Positions 29,220 to 59,752 are shown, numbered from the stretch's first letter. The stretch is DNA of 64,000 nt from an uncultured Candidatus Bathyarchaeia archaeon (GCA_964584965.1 CAZPBM010000057.1:647-64646), one strand, 5' to 3'. The notes: generated from the letters alone by a model not told the origin. Numbers and translations are program-made.

Positions 29220-29334
29220 TCCATAAAGCCTATGTGAAGAAAAAGTTTCAACGTACATAGAACAAGAATAGGCAACATGGCCAGAAAAGCTGACCCGACT
29301 ATATATACCCCCCTCCCCCCTCAACAACATGCAC
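29220..29334 (-). repeat. Dispersed non-coding repeat, copy A
   Basis: Hand alignment to the reverse complement of 59641-59752: 12 substitutions and one 3-nt indel. Confidence 0.93.
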
Positions 29335-29525
29335 GGAACAAGAAAAATAAACGTTAATACACTAAAAAATACGCACGTCAGTTTACACGGTTTGGAAAAA
29401 GCGTAAACAGCGCAAATGAAACAAGCGATATTGCTTAAATTATAACCTTAGGTAGCACAAAAAGACAAAGCTCTCAAAATCAAAATAAAGTCACATAAAA
29501 TGAATAATAGATAATAAAAAATGAG

Positions 29526-30023
29526 GTGATGAATATTACTAAAAGCCATTCTTATGTTGAGTTCCCTGGAAACGTTCACTTCGAATGCATCCTATGCGCC
29601 CTATGTTGCGGAGATACAGAAACTAATGTTCGAAAAATTCTTTTACTGAAGAATGAGGCTGAGAAAATTTCGAAAAAAACCAATGAAGACATCGAAAAAT
29701 TCGCGGAGAAAACTGGTGATAAAACATCATATGCCTATGCGATGAGAAAAACAAGTGACGGCAAATGCGTGTTTTTAAAAGAAAAATTATGTACCATTTA
29801 TGGCATAAGACCTATAATCTGCAGGTTCTACCCGTTCAAGCTTGACAACCTTGGAAATCAACATTATGCATTTTCTTACACAAAAGAGTGCCCAGGTATA
29901 GGAAAAGGACCCTATCTTAACAGAGAATTTTTCGAAACATTGTTCACCGAATTTATCACTTCAACAAAAGAAACAGACCATAAAAAATACGTAATTCCAA
30001 CACCCATCTTTGTCAAGATATGA
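29526..30023 (+). CDS. YkgJ-family (CxxCxxCC) cysteine-cluster protein
   Basis: FECILCALCC, CVFL...CTIY..RP.ICRFYPF, CPGIG. Confidence 0.9.
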   Translation: MMNITKSHSYVEFPGNVHFECILCALCCGDTETNVRKILLLKNEAEKISKKTNEDIEKFAEKTGDKTSYAYAMRKTSDGKCVFLKEKLCTIYGIRPIICRFYPFKLDNLGNQHYAFSYTKECPGIGKGPYLNREFFETLFTEFITSTKETDHKKYVIPTPIFVKI

Positions 30024-30051
30024 CTACGTCTTCCAAAAGAGCCTTAATTAA

Positions 30052-30999
30052 CTATAAATCCATGACAAAGAGAAGGCAATCTACTAGCTCCTTGTATCTG
30101 TTTCTAATGGTTACCTCAGTCACCTTCGCAATTTCCGCTATCTCACGCTGAGTTCTTCGTTCTCCAACTAAGACCGAGGCAATGTAACTTGCCGCCGCTG
30201 CAATACCTGTAGGTCCCCTGCCAGAAGTTAGCTTAAGGTTACCAGCTGTCATAAGAATTTTATTTGCAATCTCCTCAACTTTACCCTGCATCGTCAACTG
30301 ATTAGAAAACTTTGACACATACTGGTTTGCCCGAACTGGAGGAATAAGATAATCGAGCTCCTTAACCAAGAAGCGGTAGCTTCTCCCAACCTCTCTCTTA
30401 CTAACATTAGAAGCCTTAGAAATCTCTTCAAGAGTTCTGGCCAACCCACATTGTCTGCATGCAATATATACAGAAGCTGCGCTAATTCCCTGAATTGACC
30501 GTCCACGAATAAGTCTCTCCTTAACAGCCTTCCTGTAAATGACTGAAGCTGTCTCAAAAATGCTTTTTGGTAACGAAAGATTGTTTGCTATCTTCGTAAT
30601 CTCGGAAAGAGCAAACGCAAGGTTCCGCTCCATAGCATCGGAAACCCTAATCCTCCTCTGCCACTTCCTCAAACGGTAGATTTGAGCCTTCTGACCTGCG
30701 GAAAATTTTTTTCCGTAAATGTCTCGATCGTGCCAGTCAATCATCGTCGAAAGTCCCTTGTCATGAATCGTAAAAGTAACTGGAGCGCCAGTTCGAGCTC
30801 TCTTTTCTCTTTGCTCAGTATCAAAAGCCCGCCACTCAGGTCCTTGATCCGTTAATTTCATGTCAAGGACGAACCCACAGTCCATGCACACAACTTCTGC
30901 AGACTCATAATCTCTCATAAGCCTAGTTCCGCCGCATTCAGTGCATCGCTGAATATCTCTAAGACCAGGTGAAACAGACGTTTTTTTATTTTCGCTCAT
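30052..30999 (-). CDS. tfb: Transcription initiation factor IIB
   Basis: Zn ribbon [45 protein letters not shown]. Confidence 0.98.
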
Positions 31000-31253
31000 C
31001 TTCTTCCACTTCTTTTTTTCTGTTTTGAAAGAGGCGTAAAGTAAAGAAAACTTCCTACAATTGTCTGCGGGTCACCAGTTTTAACATCAACTAAGACATA
31101 AGGCGATACAGTTGGTCCAATAACGTCAAATACTTTCCCCATTTGCTTGTTCTTCTCGTCCATTACCGTTACGCCGATTCCAGGAGTTTTTTCAGCTTTT
31201 ATGACTGCTTTACCACTCGGACTGATATGAACGACTCGTCCGATTTTCTTCAA
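30996..31253 (-). CDS. gar1: H/ACA RNP protein Gar1
   Basis: IGRVVHIS...[14 protein letters not shown]; conserved position upstream of tfb. Confidence 0.92.
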
Positions 31254-31297
31254 CCCTTCAACTCCTCAAAAGACGTGAACGAAAAAACCCAAGTTTG

Positions 31298-31312
31298 TTA
31301 TATAAACATTTC
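31298..31312 (-). promoter_or_regulatory. BRE/TATA promoter for gar1-tfb
   Basis: Minus strand GAAATG-TTTATATAA about 45 nt upstream of the gar1 start. Confidence 0.55.
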
Positions 31313-31323
31313 TCATTTTAAAT

Positions 31324-31608
31324 TCAGACCATAAGTCTCGAAATCTCTTGAGCTACTTCACTGATAATCCTGTTCTTAGGCTTCGTTTTCTTAACAAGAA
31401 TCAAACCACTCTTTTTCCATGAAAAACGAGGATATGTCACATCCGTTATTACTTTATATGAAAATCCAAGATTTGCAACTGCTTTTTCAAGCACGCCCAA
31501 GTTTGGAGACGGTCTCGAGAGCTTTTTAGGCACCTTTCTTCCTTCAGACCTTGTTTTCATAGAATCAAAATAGACAGGCCATAAAACAATTTCATCTCGT
31601 CTCCGCAT
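31324..31608 (-). CDS. srp19: Signal recognition particle protein SRP19
   Basis: VLWPVYFDSMKTRSEGRKVPK, YPRFSW. Confidence 0.95.
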   Translation of the reverse strand: MRRRDEIVLWPVYFDSMKTRSEGRKVPKKLSRPSPNLGVLEKAVANLGFSYKVITDVTYPRFSWKKSGLILVKKTKPKNRIISEVAQEISRLMV

Positions 31609-31670
31609 GTCCTCAAATCACCATAACATATTTTGTGGACGACTTAATAATATGAGAGAAAACAGCTCTA

Positions 31671-32054
31671 CTATGAGACTAGAATTCCGTTAAGAACTCC
31701 CGATTGCCCAGGTCTGGATGTTACTCGAATAGTTCCAATAGAAGTTTCAAGAAGTGTTCCTTTTGTTATTACACCTCTTCTGTCATAGTCCACGTTAGAC
31801 GGGTTCTTAAGAACCCTTAATATTTCAACCCTCTTAGTTTCTCCAGTTGAAGAATCAGAGACATTCACATATTTTGTACTTACGAGACGAACCTTTAGGG
31901 TTCCTCCTCTTCCTCTTTCTTTTTTTGTCTCATGCTCACCAACAGTGGTCATAACGGGAAAGTTTCCCTTCTCGAACCGTCTTTTACCTCTATATGCTTT
32001 CTTTTTCCCGCCTGAACGCTTCTTTTTATGTAGATTGCCATGCCAAGATGACAT
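31671..32054 (-). CDS. rps8e: 30S ribosomal protein eS8
   Basis: WHGNLHKKKRSGG, NPSNVDYDRRGVITKG, VTSRPGQSG. Confidence 0.98.
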   Translation of the reverse strand: MSSWHGNLHKKKRSGGKKKAYRGKRRFEKGNFPVMTTVGEHETKKERGRGGTLKVRLVSTKYVNVSDSSTGETKRVEILRVLKNPSNVDYDRRGVITKGTLLETSIGTIRVTSRPGQSGVLNGILVS

Positions 32055-32123
32055 TCTTAATTCTCCTTAAGTAAAAAGGAAGGAACCTTCAGACTAATAT
32101 AAATTTAACGGATACTTAATGTC

Positions 32124-32729
32124 CTAACTCTCATTAAAATCGTATTCTTCATCAGAACTAAGCGGCTTTTTCATTAATTCATTAAAAGTCTTTTTAAGTT
32201 GACGTTTCATTATTTTGATGTCTCGACTTAAACCAAAATAGTCCGAAAAAAATTCCGTTACACGCAGAACCTTATTTCTACCATCACTTTTGCGTTCAAT
32301 AAGCCCCATTTCAGCCAACTGCCTAATGTGACCATAAGCATGAGCCCCTCGAGTATCAACAACCTGTTTTTGAACTATTGGCTGCTTATAAGCTATGTAA
32401 GCAAGAGTCCTAAGTGGACCGTCAGACAACAAAGGCCTAACAGCGAGTTTCCTGACTTTAGCTGAAAACTCGGTTTTTAACTGAAGAACGAACCGTTCAT
32501 CCTCAAGTTCTATTACCTCAAGCGGAGTTTCCAGTTGCTTATATTTTTCTATCAAAGCTCTAGCCAGCTGCTGAACCCTTTTCTTCGATCGGCTCCTAAT
32601 AATATGACCTAATGTTTTTATGTCAAGTGGTCGGCCTGCTACATAAAGGGCAGCCTCAATTAAAGCCAAATCTTTTTTAAGTTTTTCCTCTTGATTTTCA
32701 TCAGTTGTTACTTCATTTTTAACTGACAT
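32124..32729 (-). CDS. scpB: SMC-Scp complex subunit ScpB
   Basis: IEAALYVAGRP, LRTLAYIAYKQP, RG, TEFFSDYFGL. Confidence 0.95.
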   Translation of the reverse strand: MSVKNEVTTDENQEEKLKKDLALIEAALYVAGRPLDIKTLGHIIRSRSKKRVQQLARALIEKYKQLETPLEVIELEDERFVLQLKTEFSAKVRKLAVRPLLSDGPLRTLAYIAYKQPIVQKQVVDTRGAHAYGHIRQLAEMGLIERKSDGRNKVLRVTEFFSDYFGLSRDIKIMKRQLKKTFNELMKKPLSSDEEYDFNES

Positions 32730-33403
32730 TACTGAGCCTCATTAATGGTTACAAAAACCTCGTCAGAATTTTCCTTCTGCCATAAGGTTATCCTGTTTTT
32801 TTGAGCCAAAAAAAGCAAAACAATGAAATTTCGAATTTGCTCAATCTTTCCTAAGCCACGTGCAAGTTTCGAGAAAGTAATGATTTTTCCCTCATTGGCA
32901 AGTGTTACTATTTTTTTCATCAGCCTATCCATCTGCTCCTCCATCTCTATCAGATAAGCGCTGATAGTAGGGAATACGCCAGCCGGAGGAATGATCTCAG
33001 TTCTTGTAGACGCTTTCAAGGCAAAGATCTTCTCAGTTTTCAGTGCATTATCTAATGCCTCAAGCAAATTCTGGATTGTTGTTGTAGTCAACTCGTATCG
33101 AAGCGGAAGAACTAGGGGTGGAGGAATAAAATCAGATGGTGGTTCTGGAGCTAAAGGAGCCTTCTCAAGTTCAAGAAGCAGTTCAGACTTCATAAGGTAG
33201 ACTGTTGAAGATGAACCAAGCGCCATTCCTGAAGCTCTGAAATCAATCTCATTTCTTTTTTCCATCTCGTCAAGAAACGACAAAAGAAGAAAAGACAAGT
33301 TAATGTCCCAAGGATTCAACTTTTCCAGCAACTGCAAGTCGAAAAGAATATTCCAAGGTGGGCGAAAATAAAAGGGCTTATTGATATTTGTCTCTGTCAT
33401 CAC
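32729..33403 (-). CDS. scpA: Kleisin ScpA
   Basis: NPWDINL, DFRASG.AL, MKSE, FIVLLFLA...LWQ; between smc and scpB. Confidence 0.9.
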   Translation of the reverse strand: MMTETNINKPFYFRPPWNILFDLQLLEKLNPWDINLSFLLLSFLDEMEKRNEIDFRASGMALGSSSTVYLMKSELLLELEKAPLAPEPPSDFIPPPLVLPLRYELTTTTIQNLLEALDNALKTEKIFALKASTRTEIIPPAGVFPTISAYLIEMEEQMDRLMKKIVTLANEGKIITFSKLARGLGKIEQIRNFIVLLFLAQKNRITLWQKENSDEVFVTINEAQ

Positions 33404-36400
33404 GTGGCCTCTTTGAAAGTTGTTGTTACAACATGCGATACACCCTCAAAACCGTAAACCCCATATATTCTGTCGGCTTTACTGACCATTTCAGGCTTTA
33501 AAGTTATGACGACAAACTGTGATTTTTGGGCTTCTTCCGCAAGCAGCTCACCAAGTCTCTCAACATTAGAAGCATCTAAGTGAGCGTCAATTTCATCAAA
33601 CAAATAAAACGAAGCTGGAGTGAATTCCTGCAATGCAAACAGGAAGGCAACAGCAGAGACTGACCGTTCACCGCTGCTAGCACCACTTACTAGAATAGGA
33701 GGCTTTCCCACAAATTGGACTATCATGTCCACGCCTCCCGCAAATGGGTTCTCGGGATTCTCAAGTTTCAATGCGGCGTTTCCTCCATCTGTAAGCTTTG
33801 AGAAATATCTATCAATTCTTTCGTTAATTTTGTTAAAAGCCGCCATAAAAGCATTGTATTTCTTTCTCTCAATCTCTTCAATAAACTCAACAATCGCCAT
33901 TCTTTCTTTTTCCAACTCGTTCATGCGTATTGAAAGTTCCTTGTACTTTGAGATCTGATCCTCATACTGTATCTGTGCAAGTTGATTAATGGCACCTATC
34001 CGTTCTAACTCAAGCTTCATCATTTTTAACGAAGTCTCAATGTCTTGGATGCTTTTGGAAGGAACAGTAAAGGGTTCTTCATATCCAAAGTTCCTAAGTT
34101 GATCAAGTTGTCTTTCAACAAGAAGATTTAAAGTCTGATAGTTGAGCCTTAATTCATCCAATAACTTGTCAGACTGTTCATATTCAGCTTCAAGAACCCG
34201 AAGTTTATTATCTATCTCATCAATATGCATTGTGTACTTCTGCGATTCACCTTTGATAGTTAATAACGATTTGGATAGTTGATCCTTAACAACCTCAAGT
34301 TCTCTAATTTTATTCAGAACTGTCTCCTTTTCAGTGTTAAGTTTATCAACTTCTTGCTCCAAAGTTGCTATCTGACTAGATGCCTTATCCCTTTGAACAT
34401 AGGCATTCTCTAATTCTACCTTTAATGTAGTTTCCAATTTTGACTGGAGAGAAGAGAGTTGAGTTTCCACTTGACTAAGTTTCTGCCTTAGCGTAATTAA
34501 TTCAGTTCCCAAGACCTCACGTTTTTGTTCTCTTTCTTGAGCCATTGAAAAGTCAACATTGTGCTTAAGATTTTCAAGTTCACTTTTTAGCTTATTCTCT
34601 TCGAAGGAACATCTTTTTATTGCATCGTCAAAAAACCCTATTTGTGCCTTCTCTTTCTCGAGACTGCTTTGTAAGGTTGTTATGTTCTCTTCAACGCGCA
34701 TAATGCTTCTTTTCGTTTCATGAATGCTTTTACGTGTTCCATCAATTTCTGAATCAAGCTTTCCCAAGGCTTCGGCTGAAGCAGTTATTTCATTCTGTAT
34801 GTTCACGATTTCTTTTTCTAACTCGTTAATATCGAGTTCTCTTTTAGTTAAATTCGCCTTCAACGTAGTTACAGCCTTATCAAGGTCTTTTAAGGCTGAC
34901 TCACTAGGCACAAAGGATGAAAAATCAATAGGCGCTCGATAGAATCCGCTTTCAACACCGCCCCCCGCCTCGTAAAGATCGCCAGCCTTTGTAACAGAAC
35001 GATATCCAGCATGAGAGATCATCAACGCTGTTTTTTCGTCAGCTGCCAAAAAAGTATCGCCAAAAACAAATGAGACAGCGGCCTCATGCGTCGGATCATA
35101 CTTTACGAAAGACATGACCTTGTCTTTTGTACCTTCAATCTGCGGAAAATCGTCCATTCTAACGCTTGATAATCCTTTAAGCGGAATAATCTTTATTCTC
35201 CCAAGTTTGAGTTGCCGCAGTGTTTCAACACATACAAAGGCCGTTTCCAAACTGTCAACAACGAGCGCGTTAAGCCATCCAGCAGCTGCAGCTTCGACAG
35301 CACGTTCATAACCATTTTTAATGCTTATCAGATTCTTTAGACGACCTACAACACCTTTGACAATGCCTTCTTCAGACGATTTTTCTATATATTTTAGGGC
35401 ATTCTCTTCTGTTGTGAACTTGTTAACTAGTTCCTTGCGGGTCTCAAATTCCACAAGAGCTTCTTTGGCGACATCAGCAATTTTCTCTGCCTCTTTTATT
35501 TCTGACTCTAGAACTTCTTTTTTCTCTGTTTTTTTCTTAAGAGACTCCTGTAGTAAAGTTAATCGTTCTATTCGTTCTTTGCATATGTTTTCTAAATCCC
35601 GCAAAGACTTTTCAAGCCTATTTGATGCATCGGCATAATCGACTTTTCTATCCTCAAGATTTCTGAGCCTTTCTGAATAAATGTTGACCTTAGATTCAGT
35701 TTCTGCGCGTTGGCTACGAAGCTTTATTACTTCTCTATGTATCTGTTCAATTTGGTTTTCAATTTCACGTAACCTTCTTGTTACCTCATTCATACTAGAT
35801 CTGGCTTTCAGTGTTTCTTCATTCATTATTTCAAAAGCTGATTGTTTCTCAGCGATTTCCCTTTTAAGTAAATCCCGAGTTGGAGCAAGTTCATTGATCT
35901 TATTCTTAATATTTTCAATCTCTTGACAGAGAAATTCGATCTGTTGTTCAGCATTCTGTTTTACTCTTGTAAGGTTATCTAAACTTGTTTTATAAGATGT
36001 AATTCTTGTCGAAAGTTCAACCAGTTTTGATCTTAAGTCTCCTATCTCCATTTGGATCTGGAAAAACTTCGTTTGGTTAGCCTCAACCTCTTCAAAACCA
36101 AGTTTTCTCCACTCTATCTCAATCTCGTGACGCTTTGACTGTAAAGTTTCTCTCTGAGTTCGTATCGCTTGAATCTTTTTTTCTAAAACACCAATCTGTG
36201 CAGTCAATTCGCTAATCTTCATTTGGTTAGTTGTTATCTCATAAGACAGCTCAGCTGCTTCAAAACGTCTAATCTCGCTTTGAATGAAATTGTGACGTAG
36301 GAGGTCATTCCTTTCTCTCTCTAGAGCCTCAATTCTATTCTGAACCTCGCTTACCTGCCCCATTGCTGTTTTGATTGAAATGTCTGCTGCTTTCAGTTTT

Positions 36401-36945
36401 TCATCTGCTTCAGTTTTCTCTGCATCATATGTGGCAATACCAATCATGTCCTCGATAATTTTTCTACGTTCCATAGGAGAAATTTCAGCCAATCTCGTAA
36501 GTGTGCCCTGAAGAACAACATTATGTCCATAAGGACTGATACCTGCCATCGCAAGAATCTCCATGGCATAGGCTCTAGAGACCCTTCGACCATTAATTCT
36601 GAAAATACTTTGTCCTTCATGGTCGATTTCTCTTGAGAACGTTACCGTCGCAGTGTCAGTTGGCAGACGATTGTCCGAATTATCAAACTGAATAACGACC
36701 TTAGCGCTATCTTTCTTTCTTGAATCCGAGTTAGGGGTCCCGCTGAAAATAAGTTTTGAAAAGTTTTCTGCCCTAAGTCTTCTTGAGCTAAGTTCGCCTA
36801 AACAGAAAAGAACAGCATCAATTATGTTGGTTTTTCCACTCCCGTTTGGCCCGGTTATCGCCGTGAATCCTTTATCAAATGTTAATGTTGTTTTCTTACC
36901 AAACGTTTTAAAACCGTTGACCTCAATTTTCTTTATAAAAGGCAT
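33400..36945 (-). CDS. smc: Chromosome segregation protein SMC
   Basis: GFKTF, GPNGSGKTN, VLQG, coiled coils, hinge GRIKIIPL...GDLYEAGG, FDEIDAHLD. Confidence 0.97.
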   Translation of the reverse strand: MPFIKKIEVNGFKTFGKKTTLTFDKGFTAITGPNGSGKTNIIDAVLFCLGELSSRRLRAENFSKLIFSGTPNSDSRKKDSAKVVIQFDNSDNRLPTDTATVTFSREIDHEGQSIFRINGRRVSRAYAMEILAMAGISPYGHNVVLQGTLTRLAEISPMERRKIIEDMIGIATYDAEKTEADEKLKAADISIKTAMGQVSEVQNRIEALERERNDLLRHNFIQSEIRRFEAAELSYEITTNQMKISELTAQIGVLEKKIQAIRTQRETLQSKRHEIEIEWRKLGFEEVEANQTKFFQIQMEIGDLRSKLVELSTRITSYKTSLDNLTRVKQNAEQQIEFLCQEIENIKNKINELAPTRDLLKREIAEKQSAFEIMNEETLKARSSMNEVTRRLREIENQIEQIHREVIKLRSQRAETESKVNIYSERLRNLEDRKVDYADASNRLEKSLRDLENICKERIERLTLLQESLKKKTEKKEVLESEIKEAEKIADVAKEALVEFETRKELVNKFTTEENALKYIEKSSEEGIVKGVVGRLKNLISIKNGYERAVEAAAAGWLNALVVDSLETAFVCVETLRQLKLGRIKIIPLKGLSSVRMDDFPQIEGTKDKVMSFVKYDPTHEAAVSFVFGDTFLAADEKTALMISHAGYRSVTKAGDLYEAGGGVESGFYRAPIDFSSFVPSESALKDLDKAVTTLKANLTKRELDINELEKEIVNIQNEITASAEALGKLDSEIDGTRKSIHETKRSIMRVEENITTLQSSLEKEKAQIGFFDDAIKRCSFEENKLKSELENLKHNVDFSMAQEREQKREVLGTELITLRQKLSQVETQLSSLQSKLETTLKVELENAYVQRDKASSQIATLEQEVDKLNTEKETVLNKIRELEVVKDQLSKSLLTIKGESQKYTMHIDEIDNKLRVLEAEYEQSDKLLDELRLNYQTLNLLVERQLDQLRNFGYEEPFTVPSKSIQDIETSLKMMKLELERIGAINQLAQIQYEDQISKYKELSIRMNELEKERMAIVEFIEEIERKKYNAFMAAFNKINERIDRYFSKLTDGGNAALKLENPENPFAGGVDMIVQFVGKPPILVSGASSGERSVSAVAFLFALQEFTPASFYLFDEIDAHLDASNVERLGELLAEEAQKSQFVVITLKPEMVSKADRIYGVYGFEGVSHVVTTTFKEAT

Positions 36946-36986
36946 CTTTATTCCTCAACAAACCAACGCTCGGTTTTTTTATCTCA

Positions 36987-37532
36987 TTATTCCCTTACGA
37001 ATTGTTTCTTTCCATTTTTTTGTAATACCTTAGTCACGTTCTTAATAAAATGTTTCAGCTTTTGTTCCTCTCCATAAACAAGGACGGTGCTATCGGTTTG
37101 AACCGTTAATTTTAATCCTTTTTGTTCAGCAAGATGTTTTATTTTTTCAATTGTGACAGTTTCAAAAGGTTCAATTCTTACCCACTTGTCTTCACGAGGA
37201 ACCCCGACAGGAACCCCTTTAGAAGGTTTAGGTTTCCATAATGTTTCGCGTCTTTGTAATTCGGCAAGGTTTCTTAGCCATTTTTCCATTTCTGTTTTAC
37301 CAAGCCTATTTCCTGCTAAAGGAAGCAGAGTGGATTCAAGATTTGCAAGGTACTCCTCACTTTTTTGAAGGATTTCAGAACGCGATTGGTCAACCTTATA
37401 AATTTCCATTAAAGTTTTGGCAGCTCGCAGGTCGCTCATGATGTTAGCTGGAATTTCTTCACCCTTATTTCGCAGCTCTACAATTAAATTAGACATGAGC
37501 TCCCATACAGCCTCATAATCCACGCTTTTCAC
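36987..37532 (-). CDS. DUF2096-like archaeal protein
   Basis: W.LMSNLIVELR.KG.EIP...DLR.AK, GVPR...WVR. Confidence 0.65.
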   Translation of the reverse strand: MKSVDYEAVWELMSNLIVELRNKGEEIPANIMSDLRAAKTLMEIYKVDQSRSEILQKSEEYLANLESTLLPLAGNRLGKTEMEKWLRNLAELQRRETLWKPKPSKGVPVGVPREDKWVRIEPFETVTIEKIKHLAEQKGLKLTVQTDSTVLVYGEEQKLKHFIKNVTKVLQKNGKKQFVRE

Positions 37533-37781
37533 CTCGTATCCTGATGTAAAACAACCTTGGAATTGACCTCATTGCGTACTCAAGATTTAAAGTTCACCTC
37601 CAAGTTCCTGAAAATCCTTTGTTCATCATACTGTCTAAGCATTCACCTTGAAGAAACAAAAAAGTTGAAATTCCAAATATTTGTTTCTAATACGCATGTA
37701 TATATGTAACTATGAAAAACCGGAAAACTGTAAATACCCCAAATTTAGTCATATAACGACGGACATGAAGGTAAAAGATGC

Positions 37782-38174: not shown

Positions 38175-38195
38175 CGATATCTATAGAGGATACAC

Positions 38196-43176: not shown

Positions 43177-43182
43177 AAAACA

Positions 43183-50846: not shown

Positions 50847-50896
50847 TTTTTCACCTAACCTTTAATGTTTGTTCTTTAACAGTTTCATTGTGGATT

Positions 50897-51124: not shown

Positions 51125-51147
51125 TCATATCACCACCTTTTTCTTTT

Positions 51148-52635
51148 CTAATAATCAAGATACTTCATTATCTCCCATGGTGTAACGTAAAGGCAGTATT
51201 GGTTCCAATCGTTCGTCTTGTATTCTATGAAAGCATCAAAGATGTGGCTTCCAAGAGTCTGATGAATAATTTCGTCGCTCTTCATTTCATCCAATGCCTC
51301 TTTAAGGGTTGTTGGAAGTTCCCTAATGCCCAAGGCTCGACGCCTTTCAGCAGACAGTTTGTAAACGTCCTCGTCAACAGGGTCGCCTGAATCTATTTTC
51401 TTCTTGACACCATCCAGTCCTGCCATTAGAAGACAGGAAAAAGCCAAGTATGGATTGCATGATGGGTCTACTCCTCGGTATTCGCAACGTTTATGAGATG
51501 CGTATTGAGGTCCCTTGTAGTATAGCGGAATCCTTACTAACGCAGATCTATTTCTGCGAGACCACATTATATAGATTGGAGCCTCAAACCCTGGAACAAG
51601 CCGTTTGTACGAGCTTATTGTTGGGCAGCAAACAGCAGTTAAAGCTCTAGCATGCTCAAGTAATCCACCAATAAAGTATCTTCCAGTCTGGCTTAGCTCA
51701 GCATACTCATCGTTTTCGTCGTACATGACGTTCTCTTTGTTTTTCCACAATGATGTGTGAACGTGCATTCCACTAGCATTGTCCAAGTAGACAGGTTTAG
51801 GCATAAAAGTCGCTATTAACCCATGCTTTTTGGCAACATTTTTTGCTACAAACTTGTAATAAAGTGCATTGTCAGCTGTTTCAATCAAGGGCCCAAATCG
51901 GAAATCAATTTCTATCTGGCCTGAAGTTGCCACCTCGTGATGGTGTTTCTCGATTTTTAAGCCGAAGCAATCCTCAAGAATTGAGGCAACCTCATTGCGG
52001 TATTCGATTGTTGTGTCTTCAGGCGGAGGTCTATAATAAGCTTCTTTTGGCCTAAGAGTATAACTTCCTGTAGAAGTCTCTGGCGACTGTGGGACAACTC
52101 TGGGCGCCCCCCAAGAGTCTCCTTCGCCTCCTTTTGGGCTGACCCAAAGATCCCAAGTTAATTTTGTAGGGTCGATTGAAGAGAAGATGAAGAATTCTAG
52201 CTCTGGAGCGAAAAAGCTGGTAAATCCCATTTCTTTTGCGGCTTTTACAGCTCTCGCTGCAACATATCCTCTTGGATCTACTTCTGATGGTTCTTTGCTT
52301 CCATAAGATTCGTAAACGTCGCCTAAGATTATTCCGCTTTTTTGGTTTTCATTGCTTGTCCAAGGGATAATCGCAAGTGTATTTGGGTCGGGCATGAATA
52401 TCATGTCTGATTCTTCGATTGTTTTGAAGCCTCTAACCGATGAGCCGTCGAACCCTATTCCAGACGTAAAGGCTGTGCCTTCAATGTATTCGCTTGCTGG
52501 AATTACCATGTCTTGCATTAAGCCTCTGATGTCGATGAAGGCTGAGTGTACCCAACGAACCTTGTTTGCCTCAAGTTTTTCAATGGCTTTCTTTTGGCTT
52601 TCAGCGTCTTTCATGGAGTTCACCATTTTATTCAA
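51148..52635 (-). CDS. glnA: Glutamine synthetase type I
   Basis: FDGSSVRGF, ESDM, PELEFF, HHHEVA, ATFMPKP, SGMHVH, SYKRLVPGFEAP, NRSALVRIP, EYRGVDPSCNPY. Confidence 0.97.
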   Translation of the reverse strand: MNKMVNSMKDAESQKKAIEKLEANKVRWVHSAFIDIRGLMQDMVIPASEYIEGTAFTSGIGFDGSSVRGFKTIEESDMIFMPDPNTLAIIPWTSNENQKSGIILGDVYESYGSKEPSEVDPRGYVAARAVKAAKEMGFTSFFAPELEFFIFSSIDPTKLTWDLWVSPKGGEGDSWGAPRVVPQSPETSTGSYTLRPKEAYYRPPPEDTTIEYRNEVASILEDCFGLKIEKHHHEVATSGQIEIDFRFGPLIETADNALYYKFVAKNVAKKHGLIATFMPKPVYLDNASGMHVHTSLWKNKENVMYDENDEYAELSQTGRYFIGGLLEHARALTAVCCPTISSYKRLVPGFEAPIYIMWSRRNRSALVRIPLYYKGPQYASHKRCEYRGVDPSCNPYLAFSCLLMAGLDGVKKKIDSGDPVDEDVYKLSAERRRALGIRELPTTLKEALDEMKSDEIIHQTLGSHIFDAFIEYKTNDWNQYCLYVTPWEIMKYLDY

Positions 52636-52654
52636 CTAGCCGACTTTAATTGTG

Positions 52655-52702
52655 AAATTTATATATAAATTTTTTGGTTTATTGAGAAAATATTTAAATA
52701 TT
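52655..52702. promoter_or_regulatory. Back-to-back TATA elements of the divergent glnA / lrp promoters
   Basis: Perfect palindromes AAATTTATATATAAATTT (52655-52672) and AATATTTAAATATT (52689-52702). Confidence 0.55.
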
Positions 52703-52716
52703 GTGCTTTCTATTGA

Positions 52717-53250
52717 ATGTATATCCATTGGAAGTGTGGGGCGGAAGAGTTGGACCCCGTTTTGTTCGATAAAATAGACGAGGTTGATCTTAAAATCATA
52801 AATTTACTTCAAGAAGACTCCCGTTTTAGCTTTAATAAAGTCGCCTCAAAACTTGGCATATCGGCTGGAACCGCATTTAATCGAATAAAAAACCTAGAGG
52901 AAAAAGGGATAATAAAGGGTTACACCATCATCGTTGACCCTGCAAAGATTGGCTACGCTATGACTGCTCTTGTGCTCATTCAAGCTGAGGGCGCCCATCT
53001 TTCAGATGTTGAAAGGGAAATTGCCAAAATTGACAATGTAGTGTCGGTTTATGACATTACTGGAGATTTTGACATCGCTGTAATTGCGAGGTTTCTGGAT
53101 AGAACAAGCTTAAACGAGTTCATAAAAAGACTGGTTGCCATGCCTTATGTAAAGAGAACGGTTACTAACATTATTCTTAATGTCGTTAAGGAGGACATAA
53201 GAATCAGAATTCAACAGGGGCATATAATGAAAAATCCAATTCACTCTTGA
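52717..53250 (+). CDS. Lrp/AsnC transcriptional regulator
   Basis: IDEVDLKII.LLQEDSR HTH, GIIKGY, VYDITGDFD; start may be downstream (TTG 52750). Confidence 0.93.
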   Translation: MYIHWKCGAEELDPVLFDKIDEVDLKIINLLQEDSRFSFNKVASKLGISAGTAFNRIKNLEEKGIIKGYTIIVDPAKIGYAMTALVLIQAEGAHLSDVEREIAKIDNVVSVYDITGDFDIAVIARFLDRTSLNEFIKRLVAMPYVKRTVTNIILNVVKEDIRIRIQQGHIMKNPIHS

Positions 53251-53339
53251 TCCTTTGTGTACCTTAAATTCTTTAATCTTCGAAAACATTTATCGGTAAA
53301 ATAATAGTTTTTTGTTGTAGACCTATAGGTGATTGTGGA

Positions 53340-55007
53340 ATGAGGGTTGCCATGGCTCAAATAAACCCAACGGTAGGAGACTTGGATGGAAACACTGACA
53401 AAATTTTAAAGTACATAGAAGAAGCAAAAAAGCATAAAGCTGAGTTGGTGGTGTTTCCTGAATTAGTTGTCACCGGTTATCCTCCTCTAGACTTGTTGCG
53501 TGAAAAATCATTTGTCAAAGACAATATTAAGGTTGTAAAAAAAATAGCTAAGATGAATAGGAACATAGTCGGCGTAGTTGGTTTTGTCGACCAAAAGAAA
53601 GACAAACTTTTTAATGCTGCAGCTATTTTCGGGGAAGGCACAATTGTTGGTATAGCGCATAAAGCTCTTCTGCCTACGTATGATGTTTTTGATGAAGACA
53701 GATACTTTGTTCCAGCTAAAGAGGATGAAATTCACCCTCTAAGTGTGAACTTAGGTGGAAGGCAAGTTAAACTGGGTGTTGAAATCTGCGAAGATATATG
53801 GGACAAGAAATACGAGATTAAGGTCACTGATATTCTCGTTGAACGTGGAACACAAGCCATAATCAATATTTCAGCTTCACCTTTTTATATTGGGAAAAGG
53901 TTTGAACGCGAAAAACAACTTAAGGAAAAAGCCAAAAAATTACGTGTTCCAATTTTTTATGTTAATCTTGTTGGTGGTCAAGACGAGCTTGTTTTTGATG
54001 GACAAAGCATGAGTGTTGATGCTGAGGGAAATTTTATTGCGTTTGGTAAGCAGTTTCAGGAAGACCTCATAATTGTTGATATTAACAGCGAAACTTGGAC
54101 AGCGCCTAAAGTTGCTCCTCCAAAATATTGCGAAGAGGAGGAAAAATTTAATGCGTTGGTGTTGGGTATTCGAGATTACTATAAGAAGACGGGCTTCGAG
54201 AAAGCTGTTGTCGGAATGAGCGGTGGAATTGACTCTTCGCTAACGACTTGCATCGCTGTTGAAGCCTTAGGAAAAGAAAATGTCATTGGCGTTTCTATGC
54301 CGTCAAAATATTCAAGCGAACATAGCAAGACTGATGCGGAAAAACTGGCGAATAATCTGGGGATCTGTTTTGTAAAATTTTCGATTCATGACATTGTTGA
54401 AAGCTATAAAAGAACACTTGATGAGCCTCTTAAGGCAATTAGGAAACATTTTAGTGTTCACGAGTTTGATGATGATCCGATTGCTGATGAAAATATACAG
54501 CCTAGAACTAGAGGAAACTGTCTTATGGATATTTCGAATCGGTTGAAGGCATTGAAAATTTTGGTTTTGAATACTGGGAATAAGACAGAGCTTGCGTTGG
54601 GATACTGCACTTTATATGGAGATATGGCTGGTGGAATAGGGGCTTTGGGCGACGTGAGCAAGCTTGACGTGTATAAGCTTGCTAGGTACGTTAACATCAA
54701 AGCTAAAAAGGAGGTCATTCCAGAAAATGTTTTTAAGAAGAAGCCATCGCCTGAGCTAAAGGAAGCTCAATTTGATCCATTCGACTTTGATGTTGTCAGC
54801 CCTTTGGTTGACGAAATAATTGAACATCACAGAAGCCGAAAAGAACTAGTTAAGAAAGGATACCCCAAAGCTGTCGTGGATGATGTTTACAATCGAATAA
54901 GAAGGTCCGAATACAAGAGATGGCAGGCGGTTCCTTGTATAAAGATTACAAAACAGGCTTTTGGAATCGGGTGGAGGATGCCTATAGTTAATAAATACAA
55001 GGGCTAG
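53340..55007 (+). CDS. nadE: Glutamine-dependent NAD+ synthetase
   Basis: Nitrilase domain (FPEL, K..LPTYDVFDE, ICED) plus SGGIDS, ENIQPR, TGNKTE, YGD. Confidence 0.96.
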   Translation: MRVAMAQINPTVGDLDGNTDKILKYIEEAKKHKAELVVFPELVVTGYPPLDLLREKSFVKDNIKVVKKIAKMNRNIVGVVGFVDQKKDKLFNAAAIFGEGTIVGIAHKALLPTYDVFDEDRYFVPAKEDEIHPLSVNLGGRQVKLGVEICEDIWDKKYEIKVTDILVERGTQAIINISASPFYIGKRFEREKQLKEKAKKLRVPIFYVNLVGGQDELVFDGQSMSVDAEGNFIAFGKQFQEDLIIVDINSETWTAPKVAPPKYCEEEEKFNALVLGIRDYYKKTGFEKAVVGMSGGIDSSLTTCIAVEALGKENVIGVSMPSKYSSEHSKTDAEKLANNLGICFVKFSIHDIVESYKRTLDEPLKAIRKHFSVHEFDDDPIADENIQPRTRGNCLMDISNRLKALKILVLNTGNKTELALGYCTLYGDMAGGIGALGDVSKLDVYKLARYVNIKAKKEVIPENVFKKKPSPELKEAQFDPFDFDVVSPLVDEIIEHHRSRKELVKKGYPKAVVDDVYNRIRRSEYKRWQAVPCIKITKQAFGIGWRMPIVNKYKG

Positions 55008-55086
55008 AACTGTAGAAATATAGAACGGTATTTTGATGGTAATCTTTTATACAACAAGTCTCTGAAAAGTTGCGTTATTTTTTGAG

Positions 55087-55644
55087 CTATGATATAGTGT
55101 CAAAGGCAATGTTTGAAACGACCTTTAAAAGATCTGAACGGGTGATTATGCCGACAAGTTTCCCCTTCTTTGTCACCAAGACACCTGAGTTTTTTTCTAA
55201 TAGAGGCCTAATTACAGCAATGTCCGTGTCCTCTGGGACGCTTGGGAAGGGTTGCTTCATTATTTTTTCCACCGTTTCCTCTGCAATGTTGGGATTTAGG
55301 TTTCTGATGATTGATTCTTCAGTAATCATTCCCACGACTTTTCCATCGTCAACTATAGGTAGTTGCGAGATTGCGTATCTTACCATGATTTCGCTTGCTT
55401 CCCTAATCTTGTCTTTGGGATTTGCAGTGATTACGTTGCGGGTCATGATTTCTCCGCATTTTCTTCCTTTTCCTCCTTCGAGTGTTTCTAGAATCTTGTT
55501 TATTGTTGAGAGTCTTGGGTCCACTTTTTCGCTTTCTATTTTTGCGATGTGAGCTTGTGACACTCCGACCATCTTTGCAAGCTGGCTTTGTGTCAAGCCT
55601 GCCTCAAGTCTTTTTTTCTTTAGAATAGATCCTGTTAATGGCAA
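55087..55644 (-). CDS. XRE-HTH plus CBS-pair regulator
   Basis: GLTQSQLAKMVGVSQAHIAKIE...DPRLST, then two CBS motifs. Confidence 0.93.
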   Translation of the reverse strand: MPLTGSILKKKRLEAGLTQSQLAKMVGVSQAHIAKIESEKVDPRLSTINKILETLEGGKGRKCGEIMTRNVITANPKDKIREASEIMVRYAISQLPIVDDGKVVGMITEESIIRNLNPNIAEETVEKIMKQPFPSVPEDTDIAVIRPLLEKNSGVLVTKKGKLVGIITRSDLLKVVSNIAFDTIS

Positions 55645-55773
55645 AGAATAACCACCAGTTATTTTTTATGTATTATATATCGTTATGGTTTCTTATGTTT
55701 TTCTCGTTTTCCAAGATTGCTAACTTCGCTAGTAACAACCTGTCCTCCACATAAAGTTATGGGGTTCATAATT

Positions 55774-56683
55774 CTAACCTAAGAGATTAAGCCTGTTAAG
55801 TAGACCTTCTATGAAAACCTTTGAGGACACGATATCCTCTTCTATGTTTCCTTTGTAACCAGTTCCACCAACATCTATTGCAATGTAACCCTTGTATGAA
55901 TGCTTAGCTAAGGCTTTGATGAGTGATTCCCAGTCGATTGTTCCTTTTCCTAATGCTAGATGAAAGTTATCTCTGCCATCGTTATCAGATGCATGTACAT
56001 AGAATACTTTTGACTTTAGCTTTTCGACTGACAAGGGTAAAATTTCCTTCTGAGCATGCAAATGCCCAGTGTCTAGCACAGCCCCAAAGTTCTCGCGTTC
56101 CACGGCATCCATTAATCGAAGCATCGAGTCAGTATTGCTTATGTTCTCTCCTACACGAGGTTCTAGACAGAGTTCAAGTCCATACTTTCCAGCTATCTCG
56201 CTACAAGTTTTGAAAGTGTCGACCATTTCATCCCAAAAAACGTTCCAATCAAAACCTAAAGGAATATCGATCTTATACTCATGACCAAAGCTTATGGCCT
56301 CTTTGTATGGGGTTTTACCTAAAAAATTGATAGGTGGACGGAAAGAGTCAAGTTGAATCATATCACAACCAAGATATATGGTTATCTCACAACATTCTTC
56401 AAAATGTTTAATACTTTTTAACCTTAGATCATCATTTAGGCTCACAATATCAGGGAAAATAGCGCAAAGGTCAATAATGTTAAGGTTCAAATTATCGCAT
56501 ATTCTTCTTATCTTTTCCTTGTTTCTCTTAAATTGAGAAAGTTGTGACTCGTGCATAATCTCAATTTCCGTTGATTCAAAGCCTAGTTTAGAAATTTCTT
56601 TCAAAGAAGTGAAAATTTTTTTCCATTGACGGCGGATAGCCATATTTTGTTATTGCATAAAGCCAAGCGCAGCAAACCTTCAT
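55774..56683 (-). pseudogene. Sugar phosphate isomerase/epimerase (AP endonuclease 2 TIM barrel) with a frameshift in an A7 tract
   Basis: ATG 56683 behind GGTGA encodes MKVCCAWLYAITKYGYPPSME and joins the main ORF (LEPR, DTGH, HASDNDG, HLALGKG) only if one A of the tract at 56616-56622 is skipped. Confidence 0.8.
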
Positions 56684-56840
56684 TCACCAAGCCTCCACAA
56701 TCTTCAGTTTTATGAATGACATTTACATTAAACTATTGTATATCTTTTTTAAGCCTCTCTACCACTTAGTTTGTATCAGACAGAAATATCAGTTACAGGT
56801 ATTTACAGAACCTTAACTCTACGGAACCATGAAATTGTAT

Positions 56841-57250
56841 TCAAGGCTGGTTGTAGTTTATAGCGTGTTTGAGGAGGCAACAACTTACTAGGAAAGATAC
56901 TGACGGATAGGGGAACGTAGTTCTGCACTAGTGGAAGTGAATGTAAAGTGCAAGTCGTGAATAGGTTCGGGCTCTACCTTACTAGGGAAGGAATCAAGTA
57001 CATTCTATGTTGCGTTAACCATCCGTAAACAAACGGGAAGTTGGAACGGTTCTCTGGAGTCTACGGACAGAAAACGCATCAGTTCAAGAGCATGGATGAG
57101 TGTGAGCACTGGCATAATGAGATGAAACCACATCGCAGTTTGGACTTTGAAAACTCAGAAACTCTTATCCAACTTTTTACAGAAAAAGCTGCCAGCGCAA
57201 GCAAGTATTCCAGTATAAATAAAGTTAGTGAAATAACTATGGAAAATTAG
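56841..57250 (+). mobile_element. IS481-family transposase remnant (integrase core)
   Basis: SRLVVVYSVFEEATT, ILTDRGT*F, GIKYIL..VNHP*TNGKLER, WHNEMKPHRSL; stops at 56918 and 57026. Confidence 0.85.
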
Positions 57251-57394
57251 TGTTCATGTTTTTTCTCTTAAGTTGTTAATGTTTTTATTACTTATTAGAT
57301 GTATAATAGTGCATGTTTCGTGTAAAGATTATTCCGTAAAGTATATATTCAGTTAAGGTGTTAGCACAGAGCAAGATGGAACGGTGTAGTTTCC

Positions 57395-58603
57395 ATGAGA
57401 AACATTGTTGTTACGGATCTTAAACAGGTTCCTTTGGAAAACCAGAGAATTGAAGTGATTGAGAGAAAGGGGCTTGGACATCCGGATACCATTTGCGACA
57501 GCATTATGAATGATATTTCAATTAACCTTAGCAAGGAGTACTTGAAAAGGACTGGAAGTATTTTGCATCATAATATTGACAAGTCTCTTTTAGCTGCTGG
57601 GCACGTGGAAACGCGATTTAAGGGTGGCATAGTAAGAAAGCCGATGAAGCTAATTTTTGGTGACAGAGCAACGTACGAGGTTGATGGAGACGAGATTCCC
57701 GTTGAGGAGATTGCGGTTCAAACGGCGAAGCAATGGTTTAAAAAGAACATGCGGTTTGTGAATCCTAATGAACATGTTGTGTATCAAGTTGAAATTCAGC
57801 CAGGTTCATCTGCGTTGACGGATATTTTCAGAAGAGGCGGTAGGGTTCTTGAGGCGAATGACACTTCGGCAGCTGTGGGCTGGGCGCCTCTTACGAAGAC
57901 GGAGATGGCTGTGTTAAAGACGGAGAATTACTTGAACTCGAAGGAGTTTAAGAAGAGTTTTCCAGAGTCTGGTGAAGACATTAAAGTTATGGGTCTGAGA
58001 AAAGATGATAATCTGGAATTGATTATTTCGATGGCTTTTGTTGATCGTTTCATCGAAAGTGAAAAGCATTATTTTGAATCAAAAGAGAAGATTCTTGAAA
58101 ATGTAGTGCAATATGTTGAGGAGAATAATAGCTTCTCTAAGACGCAGGTGCAGCTGAATACTTTGGACACTCCAGGAAGAGGGATAGATGGAGTTTACTT
58201 AACTGTTTTGGGTACAAGCGCAGATGGGGCTGATTCTGGTCAGGTTGGTAGAGGAAACAGGGTTAATGGGCTTATTTCGCTTAATCGACCGCAATGTTCG
58301 GAAGCTGCAGCTGGCAAGAATCCTGTTAGTCATGTCGGGAAAATCTATAACTTGTTGACTTTTCAGATTGCAAACAAGATTCATCAACAGGTTCAGGACG
58401 TTAAAGAGGTGTATGTTTGGTTGTTGAGTAAGATTGGGCAACCTATTGACCAACCTACAGTAGCAGCAGTTCAAATTATCCCGGATGGGCGTATTTCTTT
58501 TGATAGGGTTAAGAGGGAAGCAGAGGAAGTTGTTGATTTTGAGCTGGAAAACATTGAGAAATTCTGTATGGAATTAGCTATGGGTAAGATTCCGGTGTGT
58601 TAG
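57395..58603 (+). CDS. mat: Archaeal-type S-adenosylmethionine synthetase
   Basis: ERKGLGHPD, HHNIDK, ANDTS, GEDIKVMG, DSGQVGRGNR, AAGKNPVSHVGKIYN. Confidence 0.97.
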   Translation: MRNIVVTDLKQVPLENQRIEVIERKGLGHPDTICDSIMNDISINLSKEYLKRTGSILHHNIDKSLLAAGHVETRFKGGIVRKPMKLIFGDRATYEVDGDEIPVEEIAVQTAKQWFKKNMRFVNPNEHVVYQVEIQPGSSALTDIFRRGGRVLEANDTSAAVGWAPLTKTEMAVLKTENYLNSKEFKKSFPESGEDIKVMGLRKDDNLELIISMAFVDRFIESEKHYFESKEKILENVVQYVEENNSFSKTQVQLNTLDTPGRGIDGVYLTVLGTSADGADSGQVGRGNRVNGLISLNRPQCSEAAAGKNPVSHVGKIYNLLTFQIANKIHQQVQDVKEVYVWLLSKIGQPIDQPTVAAVQIIPDGRISFDRVKREAEEVVDFELENIEKFCMELAMGKIPVC

Positions 58604-58624
58604 TGTGTAGTGTGTTTTTGTTTC

Positions 58625-59518
58625 TTACTTTAGGATTATGATTGAGCCGTATCCTACGATTAGGTCTGTTCCTCCGCCTGTGTCGTGGCTTGTCGCATAT
58701 TTTAGAAGTTTAGCTTCTTTTGCGCCCAGTTCCTTAGCTGCGACAATCATTGTGGCGACTGGAAGGGAACCGCACATCGTGTAGCCTTTTTCTTGGATTG
58801 TGTTTACCAGTTTTTCTGCGTCTAGTTTGAGGATGATGTCTATGATGGATTTGTCTGCGTCGTTCATCCATTTTAAAGCTTTTTCGAAGGGTCTCATTCC
58901 AACAGGCGCATACCCGTAGTTTGGGCCGTAGTGAATGAAGTCTGTGCTTCCTAGGATGACTGTGTCTTTTTGTTGGTCTTTTACTGCTTTTGCGATTGCT
59001 TTGCCGACGTTTTTGCACATCGTGTAGTCGCCGTAGCCCACGGTTATTGGAACGATCTTGAATTTTCCGTTGTAGATGTATTGGAGGAATGGGAGTTGAA
59101 CCTCTATTGAGTGTTCTTGGTCGTGTGCCTCTGGATTTATGTCTATGTACTCAGAATTTTTTGTAATAGTTTTTGCAAGTTCCGAGTCTACCTCGACGTC
59201 TCCTAGTGGCATTTTCCAGATTCCGTCAAGCATCGTGTTGAAGCCTGGGTAGCCTCTGTGGTTTACTCCGATGATTATGAAGGTTTCTGGTGTTCCGTCC
59301 TTTGCTATGTTGTGGTAGGTGTATCCTGCGATGGGTCCTGAGTAGACAAGTCCAGCGTGAGGAACCACTGCTCCAACTATGCGTCTCTCCCCGTGTTCTG
59401 GAATTTTAGGCAGCTCGCCGACTCCGTGTTTTGATGTGAAACACCATTCTATTTCCTCTTTTTCCTCCTTGCTGTTAAAGGGGTGAAACCCCCAAGCTGA
59501 AGCTCTTCTAACCCTCAT
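58625..59518 (-). CDS. MEMO1 family protein (AmmeMemoRadiSam protein B)
   Basis: VPHAGLVYSG, GVNH, EHSIEVQLPFLQ, STDFIHYG, TMCG, YATS.D, VGYGS. Confidence 0.93.
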   Translation of the reverse strand: MRVRRASAWGFHPFNSKEEKEEIEWCFTSKHGVGELPKIPEHGERRIVGAVVPHAGLVYSGPIAGYTYHNIAKDGTPETFIIIGVNHRGYPGFNTMLDGIWKMPLGDVEVDSELAKTITKNSEYIDINPEAHDQEHSIEVQLPFLQYIYNGKFKIVPITVGYGDYTMCKNVGKAIAKAVKDQQKDTVILGSTDFIHYGPNYGYAPVGMRPFEKALKWMNDADKSIIDIILKLDAEKLVNTIQEKGYTMCGSLPVATMIVAAKELGAKEAKLLKYATSHDTGGGTDLIVGYGSIIILK

Positions 59519-59640
59519 CCTAAATCCCTAAGAATACATATGTGGAGGAAATATAAAAACGACGTAAATGGGCCATTTTCGAATGTTTTCAAGCATGCTA
59601 CATGTGGTTTGCACGTTAGTTTTTGTGGGTTTCCTTTTTT

Positions 59641-59752
59641 GTGTAAGTTGTTGAGGGGGGAGGGTATATATAATCAGGTCAGCTTTTCTGGCCATCTTAC
59701 CTATTCTTGTTCTATGCGCATTGAAACTTTTTCTTTACATAGGCTCTGTGGA
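59641..59752 (+). repeat. Dispersed non-coding repeat, copy B
   Basis: Inverted copy of 29220-29334; 100 of 115 aligned columns identical by hand. Confidence 0.93.

Follow-up and report, generated by a model that had tools for sequence, protein, structure and literature searches.

A mosaic intergenic repeat family without terminal inverted repeats at gene-order breakpoints in Bathyarchaeia

The window analysed here, a stretch of 64,000 nucleotides (nt) on contig C57 of an uncultured Candidatus Bathyarchaeia archaeon, contains two inverted copies (copy A and copy B) of a non-coding element. Both belong to a mosaic intergenic repeat family, which has no terminal inverted repeats and is new for Bathyarchaeia. 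This lineage-restricted repeat of ~140 bp is probably (with a probability of about 0.7) the main substrate for ectopic homologous recombination in the genome holding the window, hereafter G000, which belongs to a hot-spring archaeon of the Bathyarchaeota type and comprises 1.84 Mb on 68 contigs. Roughly two thirds of the breakpoints in gene order among the three species compared coincide with this single small repeat family, which also shows signs of gene conversion between strains, in a genome without high-copy insertion sequences (IS). Bathyarchaeia are abundant and uncultured, and to our knowledge almost nothing is known about what shapes their chromosomes; for the study of genome evolution, the family offers a tractable archaeal example of short-homology recombination driving rearrangement. 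Within the portions of the sources covered by a literature search, no publication on such a repeat in Bathyarchaeia was found.

Gene-order breakpoints at copies of the repeat

The comparison comprised 41 genomes of the archaeal family, namely G000, six congeners (G001-G006) and 34 genomes from other genera. The congeners G002 and G005, two sister species with ~86-88% nucleotide identity to G000, carry the element. The repeat consists of two modules, M1 and M2; judged by the coordinates of a profile hidden Markov model (HMM), 19 copies of G000 are near-full (M1 and M2), 11 contain M1 only and 11 contain M2 only. When the flanks of 20 copies from the two congeners were mapped on G000, 15 had two flanks that map beside different copies or contigs, four were collinear and one was undetermined, and in the rearranged copies the upstream flank of one copy was always joined to the downstream flank of another. 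Tiling of 864 kb (474 kb of G005 and 390 kb of G002) against G000 revealed 49 junctions: 13 are uninformative, with G000 contig ends on both sides, 11 are one-sided (three of them with a copy) and 25 are internal. A copy is present at the junction in 16 of the 25 internal cases, and three more have a copy on the G000 side. Fisher's test gave p = 1.4e-22 for 31 copies and ~608 called intergenic gaps, a value derived from a crude map, on which just 19 of the 31 copies coincided with called gaps.

For two exchanges, C31:75.8k x C61:34.9k (G002) and C54:37.5k x C44:12.7k (G005), the two reciprocal products were both observed, and G005 has in inverted orientation a 4.4-kb segment that is bounded by the inverted M2-only copies C14:10251-10290 and C14:14643-14711. 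The C14 inversion, the C54 x C44 exchange and the exchanges C36:20502 x C5 and C31 x C61:20512 involve M2-only copies, which do not contain the palindrome of M1; the exchange C31 x C61:34900 must lie in M1. Since some crossovers must lie in M1 and others in M2, the exchange would be a general homology-dependent recombination, which acts wherever homology exists and does not cut at one fixed site. At three informative sites (copy B, C18:69486 and C26:7743), the flanks are also non-adjacent in three element-less congeners. The Memo gene upstream of copy B adjoins, in G001 and G006, the gene that follows copy C18:69486 in G000; this arrangement is probably ancestral.

Copies from one species resemble each other more closely than copies at orthologous positions do, which is read as gene conversion between copies. 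Copy B (L001 in the identity and tree comparisons) shares 64.9% identity with its orthologue L032, compared with 84-85% for the best G000 paralogues and 90-91% for two sister-strain copies. On the tree, the genome labels cluster, with 18 changes versus 25.7 in shuffles (none of 200 shuffles was as low), and two sister-strain orthologues group with other paralogues with support values of 99/90 and 100/99. The family looks old: it would have spread before the split of the three species without transposition since, and its copies would be kept alike by recombination rather than by current transposition.

It is highly improbable that the breakpoints are assembly artefacts, in which the wrong flanks were joined across the repeat and the true chromosomes are collinear. 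Such an origin would fit with the facts that all genomes compared are draft metagenome assemblies, that some copies are located at contig ends (C10:228, C58:1306, C18:120120 and L049) and that Logan contigs, assembled with short k, break at the element. However, identical stretches between copies span only ~45-50 nt and are shorter than reads, and both the reciprocal products and the clean 4.4-kb inversion are found in the interior of long contigs. Of 31 loci recovered by a metagenome scan, 25 contain the element; 12 of these are 99-100% identical to G000 and may not be independent. Another 13 come from a separate record set with 97-98% identity, and this independent assembly of a related strain reproduces the G000 flank pairs at eight of the 13 copies, which are collinear across the copy, while two reach G000 contig ends and three differ. 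One of the three strain differences lies well inside a 60-kb contig, where the upstream flank of C18:120120 is joined to the downstream flank of C28:15985 via one intact copy. In addition, G002 and G005 have two junctions in common that differ from G000, and the non-adjacent flanks in the element-less congeners also argue against misjoined contigs.

A number of points speak against the repeat as the main recombination substrate. No copy is found in the relative at nine of the 25 internal breakpoints, and among the 31 sampled copies, 12 are either collinear or located at contig ends. One junction without the element is located at a tRNA-Leu(CAG) gene (C3:31388) and was counted as one-sided, because its C3 side lies within 1.4 kb of the end of that G000 contig. 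Two of the three strain-level differences are within 300 nt of contig ends. Logan contigs provide no independent bridge, since those of four DNA runs all stop at the repeat; they speak neither for nor against the junction at copy B. Assembly errors arise at repeats, the synteny map was made with 400-nt tiles and a home-made open reading frame (ORF) caller, which yields a crude gene map, and related genomes are non-independent samples. The homogenisation within species could also result from lineage-specific bursts of copying. Finally, passive homologous recombination explains neither why M1 has been retained across five species nor how the family first spread.

At the tRNA-Leu junction, position ~6000 of G005 contig C3 matches both G000 C57:~14624-15024 (window ~14000-14400) and C3:31392; tRNA genes are a usual kind of integration site. 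For metagenomics, the repeat marks where contigs break and where binning and scaffolding can go wrong.

Anatomy and distribution of the family

A BLAST search with copy B against its own assembly gave 41 matches, and iterated nhmmer searches of G000 converged from 25 via 40 to 41 matches at E<=1e-3; with the filters off and E<=10, 54 were obtained. The density is roughly one copy per 40-45 kb. In a self-BLAST of G000, 342 of 612 non-self high-scoring segment pairs belong to this family and the remainder to low-copy paralogous genes; neither another high-copy repeat nor a high-copy IS was detected.

M1 reads T(T/C)C(C/T)GTG..GTTGTTGAGGGGGGAG(G)n - TATATATAG - TCG - GGTCAG - CTTTT - CTG(G/A)CC - ATC, and its core consists of the G-tract, TATATATA and the palindrome GGTCAG-N5-CTGRCC. 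A poorly conserved spacer of 14-40 nt separates it from M2, which reads TTCCGTGC...TTGA.A - T6-7 - CTTTATATAGGCTC - TGTGGAAACAC - TGTGGAA.. - TGTGGATT and has a core of the T-tract, TTTATATA and three TGTGGA repeats. Between copies, length differences of 1-6 nt in the homopolymer tracts and in the spacer rule out a conserved reading frame. An extra insert of ~20 nt between M1 and M2, which is partly palindromic (e.g., CATGGCTTAAGGCATAAGTGCC), is present in C33:19828, C66:21241 and C58:1306 of G000 and in C1:57782 of G002. The idea that M1 and M2, which share the start TTCYGTGCAYRTTG, are tandem duplicates was dropped, as their local alignment score of 17.5 was not significant (shuffled mean 22.6).

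By BLAST, the element is present in three of the 41 related genomes, i.e., G000 and two of its six congeners, and is missing from all 34 genomes outside the genus. A sequence-only covariance model (CM) built from 45 copies found 45 matches in G000, 43 and 28 in two congeners (28 in G002), and 11 and 9 weak M1-only matches in two further congeners, G001 and G003; two other genera gave a single weak match each, and the other 34 of the 41 genomes gave none. With 41-54 copies in G000 and dozens in two congeners, the lineage-specific dispersed element suggested by the earlier note is borne out, and the case in which only the two window copies exist and relatives lack the element does not agree with the counts. 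The weak matches comprise the G-tract, TATATATAG, the palindrome and CTGACCATCC, and within the family the M1 palindrome shows the strongest conservation across five species. In G001 and G003, M1 is embedded among units of a different repeat, TCTGATTTG-N9-T-rich-GTTTG-N9. When one genome per species (~185,000) was scanned for the exact pattern, the M1 core was found in just one other record, a Candidatus Bathyarchaeota metagenome-assembled genome.

Tandem arrays of this different intergenic repeat are also located upstream of the Memo orthologue in G001 (L055) and G003 (L056), and further arrays are found in L212, L213 and L219-L236. Their unit consists of (G)TCTGATTTG, nine variable nt, a T-rich stretch, GTTTG and nearly the same nine nt again; the 9-nt word is thus repeated within a unit and differs between units, and M1-like modules lie inside the arrays.

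The two window copies and the features around them are as follows (window position equals C57 contig coordinate minus 646):

59638..59769, plus strand: copy B, whole element (M1, spacer and M2); nhmmer match C57:60287-60414, CM match C57:60284-60415
59638..59695, plus strand: copy B, module M1, from the sequence and family alignments
59653-59664, 59665-59672 and 59677-59693, plus strand: G-tract, TATATATA and palindrome GGTCAG-CTTTT-CTGGCC of copy B M1
59710..59769, plus strand: copy B, module M2, with TTCTATGCGCATTGAAAC, T-tract, TTTACATAGG (most copies: TTTATATAGG) and TGTGGAAAC/TGGAAT repeats
29214..29338, minus strand: copy A, whole element; nhmmer match C57:29982-29861 (HMM 1-119), CM match C57:29860-29970
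29277..29338, minus strand: copy A, module M1, with G-tract 29308-29322, TATATATA 29300-29307 and palindrome 29279-29295
29214..29262, minus strand: copy A, module M2, from the sequence and alignments
58625..59518, minus strand: Memo-family gene, upstream flank of copy B (Pfam PF01875, E 5e-71)
59549..59560, minus strand: TATA-like promoter of the Memo gene, GTTTTTATATTT on the minus strand, from compared upstream regions
59870..60535, plus strand: B3_4-domain gene, downstream flank of copy B (Pfam PF03483, E 5e-30)
29526..30023, plus strand: CxxCxxCC (YkgJ-type) gene, upstream flank of copy A (Pfam PF03692, E 4e-11)

The inverted pair described in the earlier note proved to be real: an inverted-repeat search recovered arms at 29220-29325 and 59647-59752 (106 nt, 86% complementary), and an adjoining inverted piece of 35 nt extends the pair to 29345/59630. 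The HMM and CM spans of 29214-29338 (minus) and 59638-59769 (plus) are slightly wider than first described. Chance falls far short of explaining the pair, as G000 contains this sequence 41 times (nhmmer, E<=1e-3). In a MAFFT alignment over the range given in the earlier note, copies A and B differ by the 12 substitutions it had counted (mostly transitions, by our own count) and a gap of 3 nt in the G-tract; copy A is diverged in the 3' part of M2. As claimed, GGTCAG/CTGGCC and CTATG/CATAG do not differ between the two copies; within the family, CTATG...CATAG is a sub-family variant of this species, and most copies have CCGTG...TATAG. Of the neighbours named previously, Memo, B3_4 and the YkgJ-type gene were confirmed by Pfam; the 114-amino-acid ORF on the 'transglutaminase' side of copy A has no Pfam match and its label could not be confirmed. 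The 11-nt inverted pair TAACATTTATT / AATAAACGTTA at 29185-29195 and 29346-29356 brackets copy A only; it is absent at copy B and is thus not a family feature.

Transposition, site-specific recombination and promoter activity

A non-autonomous mobile element was among the earlier proposals. It would be a still-moving transposable element, either of the MITE (miniature inverted-repeat transposable element) type or derived from IS200/IS605; the rearrangements would then result from transposition or from recombination among newly inserted copies. The multi-copy, intergenic nature of the family, its unit of ~140 bp, its narrow lineage and its sub-terminal palindrome would be in line with such an origin, and decayed copies such as C16:50155 exist. 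Nevertheless, this explanation is very unlikely, as none of the defining features was found. In agreement with the earlier note, no inverted repeat is common to the ends of both window copies (an inverted-repeat scan found only an internal 10-nt palindrome in copy B), and an alignment of 45 copies shows unrelated ends. Target duplications are not apparent, the longest common border word having a mean of 4.67 nt versus 4.91 in mismatched controls (n=15 full copies). Searches for a partner transposase with PF01797 (Y1) and PF07282 (TnpB), which did not extend to DDE families, gave no match in G000 and G002, which hold 45 and 28 copies, and self-BLAST revealed no longer repeat with the same ends in G000. 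Across the genus, PF01797 has no match in G000, G001, G002, G003, G004 and G006, and six in G005 only. Within the collinear blocks of the 864-kb sample, nine of ten copies have a (sometimes weak) counterpart at the matching place in G000; the tenth, on G005 C4 versus G000 C20, is no clean presence/absence case, as the sequence beyond the gene end does not align. C16:50155 was considered as an empty site and proved to be a decayed copy. The three sites inspected in element-less congeners are synteny breaks, at which no empty site is readable, and the loci of the YkgJ-type gene in three such congeners matched that gene only and were uninformative for copy A.

G005 is the only element-bearing genome with IS200/IS605-type elements, which contain Y1 and TnpB (six matches each) and are located on C21, C37, C44 and C78.

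Given that exchanges are reciprocal, a dedicated site-specific recombinase could in principle act on the element, as at a shufflon or att site, with the M1 palindrome as crossover site. The palindrome, with its 6-bp arms and 5-nt spacer, has the layout of a tyrosine-recombinase core site and is kept in five species, its spacer occurs in both orientations (CTTTT in G000 and AAAAG in five G003 copies), and G000 has 13 matches to the Phage_integrase family. Little probability is given to this explanation, however, since exchanges between M2-only copies do not involve the palindrome and others necessarily lie in M1, which leaves no single crossover point. Furthermore, every one of the seven genomes of the genus has Phage_integrase matches, whether it carries the element or not, and Pfam annotation near the copies, which covered 17 proteins only, revealed no adjacent recombinase gene. 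C31:49785 (M1) and C31:42245 (M2), which are 7.5 kb apart in the same orientation, were considered as attL and attR halves and rejected; G002 has the same arrangement. At C18:120120 and C28:15985, ~11-15 nt around the M2 TATA box are present at both halves and the sister strain has one intact copy; the flanks are ordinary (2H-phosphoesterase-like by eye and AAA_17 kinase-like by Pfam), which indicates a rearrangement and not an integrated element.

The conservation of M1 (G-tract, (TA)4, a GGTCA-N7-TGACC palindrome and CATC) in five species in which the partner modules differ could point to a dedicated DNA-level site. M1 would then be the binding or opening site of a nucleoid or insulator protein or of a recombination-promoting factor, and the reshuffling would be actively promoted, as an archaeal counterpart of bacterial BIME (bacterial interspersed mosaic element) and shufflon biology; we regard this as unlikely. 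The two spacer orientations and the strand-asymmetric variation of the arms would in that case reflect extrusion of a hairpin or cruciform in vivo. The conserved M1 is a concrete candidate for a protein-binding or promoter element. The earlier note had also named a chromosome-organisation site; the role visible in the gene-order data is that of a site of recombination and rearrangement.

It is rather doubtful, though still conceivable, that the element is a self-promoted small-RNA or promoter cassette, in which M1 (purine tract and TATATATA) and M2 (TTTATATA) are working archaeal promoters that either produce short non-coding transcripts ending at T-runs or drive neighbouring genes, with recombination as a side effect. 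Both modules contain octamers of the archaeal TATA type, and the tRNA promoters of G000 have a purine run ending in GG just 5' of the TATA box, a layout that by eye resembles M1. T-runs follow ~30-100 nt after M2 in most copies (by eye), and on C28 an M2 remnant lies on the other strand ~55-60 nt before the start of the kinase-like gene. However, orientation does not fit with a portable promoter for neighbouring genes, as the earlier note had envisaged. On the home-made ORF map, each of the 41 copies is flanked by long ORFs; the gene downstream has the same orientation as the element in 21 of 41 cases and the opposite one in 20, and the upstream gene is divergent in 21 of 40 cases and co-oriented in 19, with nine of 40 copies located between convergent genes. 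By Pfam, the genes beside the copies are housekeeping genes without relation to each other. The Memo gene possesses a TATA-like box of its own, ~40 nt ahead of the start, which is kept in five congener loci, four of them without the M1-M2 element. With a weight matrix derived from 27 tRNA upstream regions, in which TTTAAA comes after an A-rich stretch, the element reached a mean of -2.6 on the forward and 6.7 on the reverse strand, compared with a median of ~12 for the tRNA sites and a 95th percentile of 10 for the background. Since the element scores below the tRNA sites on both strands, its TATA-like octamers are a resemblance and not evidence of activity. A promoter profile anchored at start codons was also tried and was uninformative, because the genes have Shine-Dalgarno leaders.

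The structured small RNA suggested previously found no backing either. The frequent variants in the 3' arm of the palindrome are exactly those that keep G-U pairing on the plus strand of the element, but a strand-biased mutation spectrum would give the same pattern; all palindrome variants are one-sided transitions, and no pair is changed on both sides. In G001, the 5' arm breaks two of six pairs without compensation, and the flipped spacer of the five G003 copies points to DNA-level events. A transcript from M1 would comprise the least conserved stretch of the element, in which insertions and deletions occur, and the M1 palindrome, which lies between the TATA box and the expected start, would not be included in this RNA. 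RNAalifold gave -0.22 kcal/mol for 45 copies with only the G-tract and T-tract paired, i.e., no conserved fold, and six single-sequence folds on either strand were no better than shuffles (z -0.36 to +1.23). Rfam searches found no match at the gathering score in the whole window and none at E<=10 in 59550-59900. The element would more likely be read as DNA, as a palindromic protein-binding or easily opened site beside TATA-like and homopolymer tracts, than as structured RNA.

Two further ideas were rejected. The likely replication origin of G000 (C17:26315-26841) lies beside orc1/cdc6, is AT-rich and contains three classical origin recognition boxes (ORBs) of the TTCCACAGGAAACGAAGGGGT type; the element has only GTGGAAAC in common with these and does not carry the GGGGT that stands at a fixed distance in the G000 ORB. 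A CRISPR array with seven repeats of 36 nt was seen in a 421,673-bp IMG/VR viral record (L123:1618-2053), and one spacer shares 19 nt with the M1 core. As only one of six spacers matches, over 19 nt, the 19-mer also occurs in unrelated metagenome loci and the record has no copy of the element, this match is at chance level.

Similarity to known repeats and recombination sites

As a recombination substrate, the family behaves like bacterial dispersed repeats such as the Correia and REP (repetitive extragenic palindromic)/BIME families, although by defining features it belongs to none of these. The CREE (Correia repeat enclosed elements) of Neisseria are bacterial and have terminal inverted repeats and a TA target duplication, whereas the archaeal element has two separable modules, no inverted ends and no target duplication. 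In the available portions of two papers, CREE are described as multi-copy intergenic repeats of ~100-150 bp, which may hold promoter-like sequence and have been considered in the context of chromosomal rearrangement (PMC2649163, PMC9778887). The similarity extends to size, copy number, intergenic location, promoter-like sequence and the link to rearrangement.

In BIMEs, palindrome units are combined with other motifs into mosaics, and a mosaic of separable short modules in intergenic DNA is also seen here, as the numbers of M1-M2, M1-only and M2-only copies illustrate. REP units, in contrast, are ~35 bp long, often form inverted pairs and are mobilised by REP-associated tyrosine transposases (RAYT, Y1); the element has one palindrome per unit beside TATA-like boxes, and Y1_Tnp has no match in G000. 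REPINs and REPs are characterised, as far as the part of PMC8049555 considered goes, as short palindromic high-copy intergenic units that persist for long times.

Excerpts of a study on promoter reuse in prokaryotes (PMC3575422) describe putative mobile promoters as very similar promoter-like intergenic sequences beside unrelated genes. The element likewise has neighbouring genes that are unrelated to each other; however, mobile promoters are defined by their position upstream of genes, whereas the orientation of the element is random, copies also lie between convergent genes and promoter activity, despite the TATA-type octamers, is not supported by the tRNA-promoter matrix. Prokaryotic and archaeal MITEs have been reviewed (PMC10969869, of which a part was considered). 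The element resembles MITEs in size, copy number and its non-coding, intergenic nature and differs from them in the lack of terminal inverted repeats, target duplications and an autonomous partner (in a self-BLAST and in searches for Y1 and TnpB); no clean insertion polymorphism was seen in the collinear blocks compared.

Sites of the dif, lox or shufflon type also have inverted arms around a short spacer, as in GGTCAG-N5-CTGRCC, which is kept across five species; they differ from the element, in which there is no single fixed crossover point. IS elements, rRNA operons and tRNA genes act as recombination substrates at synteny breakpoints, e.g., in Pyrococcus and Thermococcus. These substrates share with the family the dispersed homology, the inversions and translocations, the junctions of the type U(i)-repeat-D(j), in which the upstream flank of one copy meets the downstream flank of another, and the reciprocal products; here, however, the homology is provided by a non-coding repeat of 40-140 bp at 75-95% identity and not by a kilobase-sized gene or IS.

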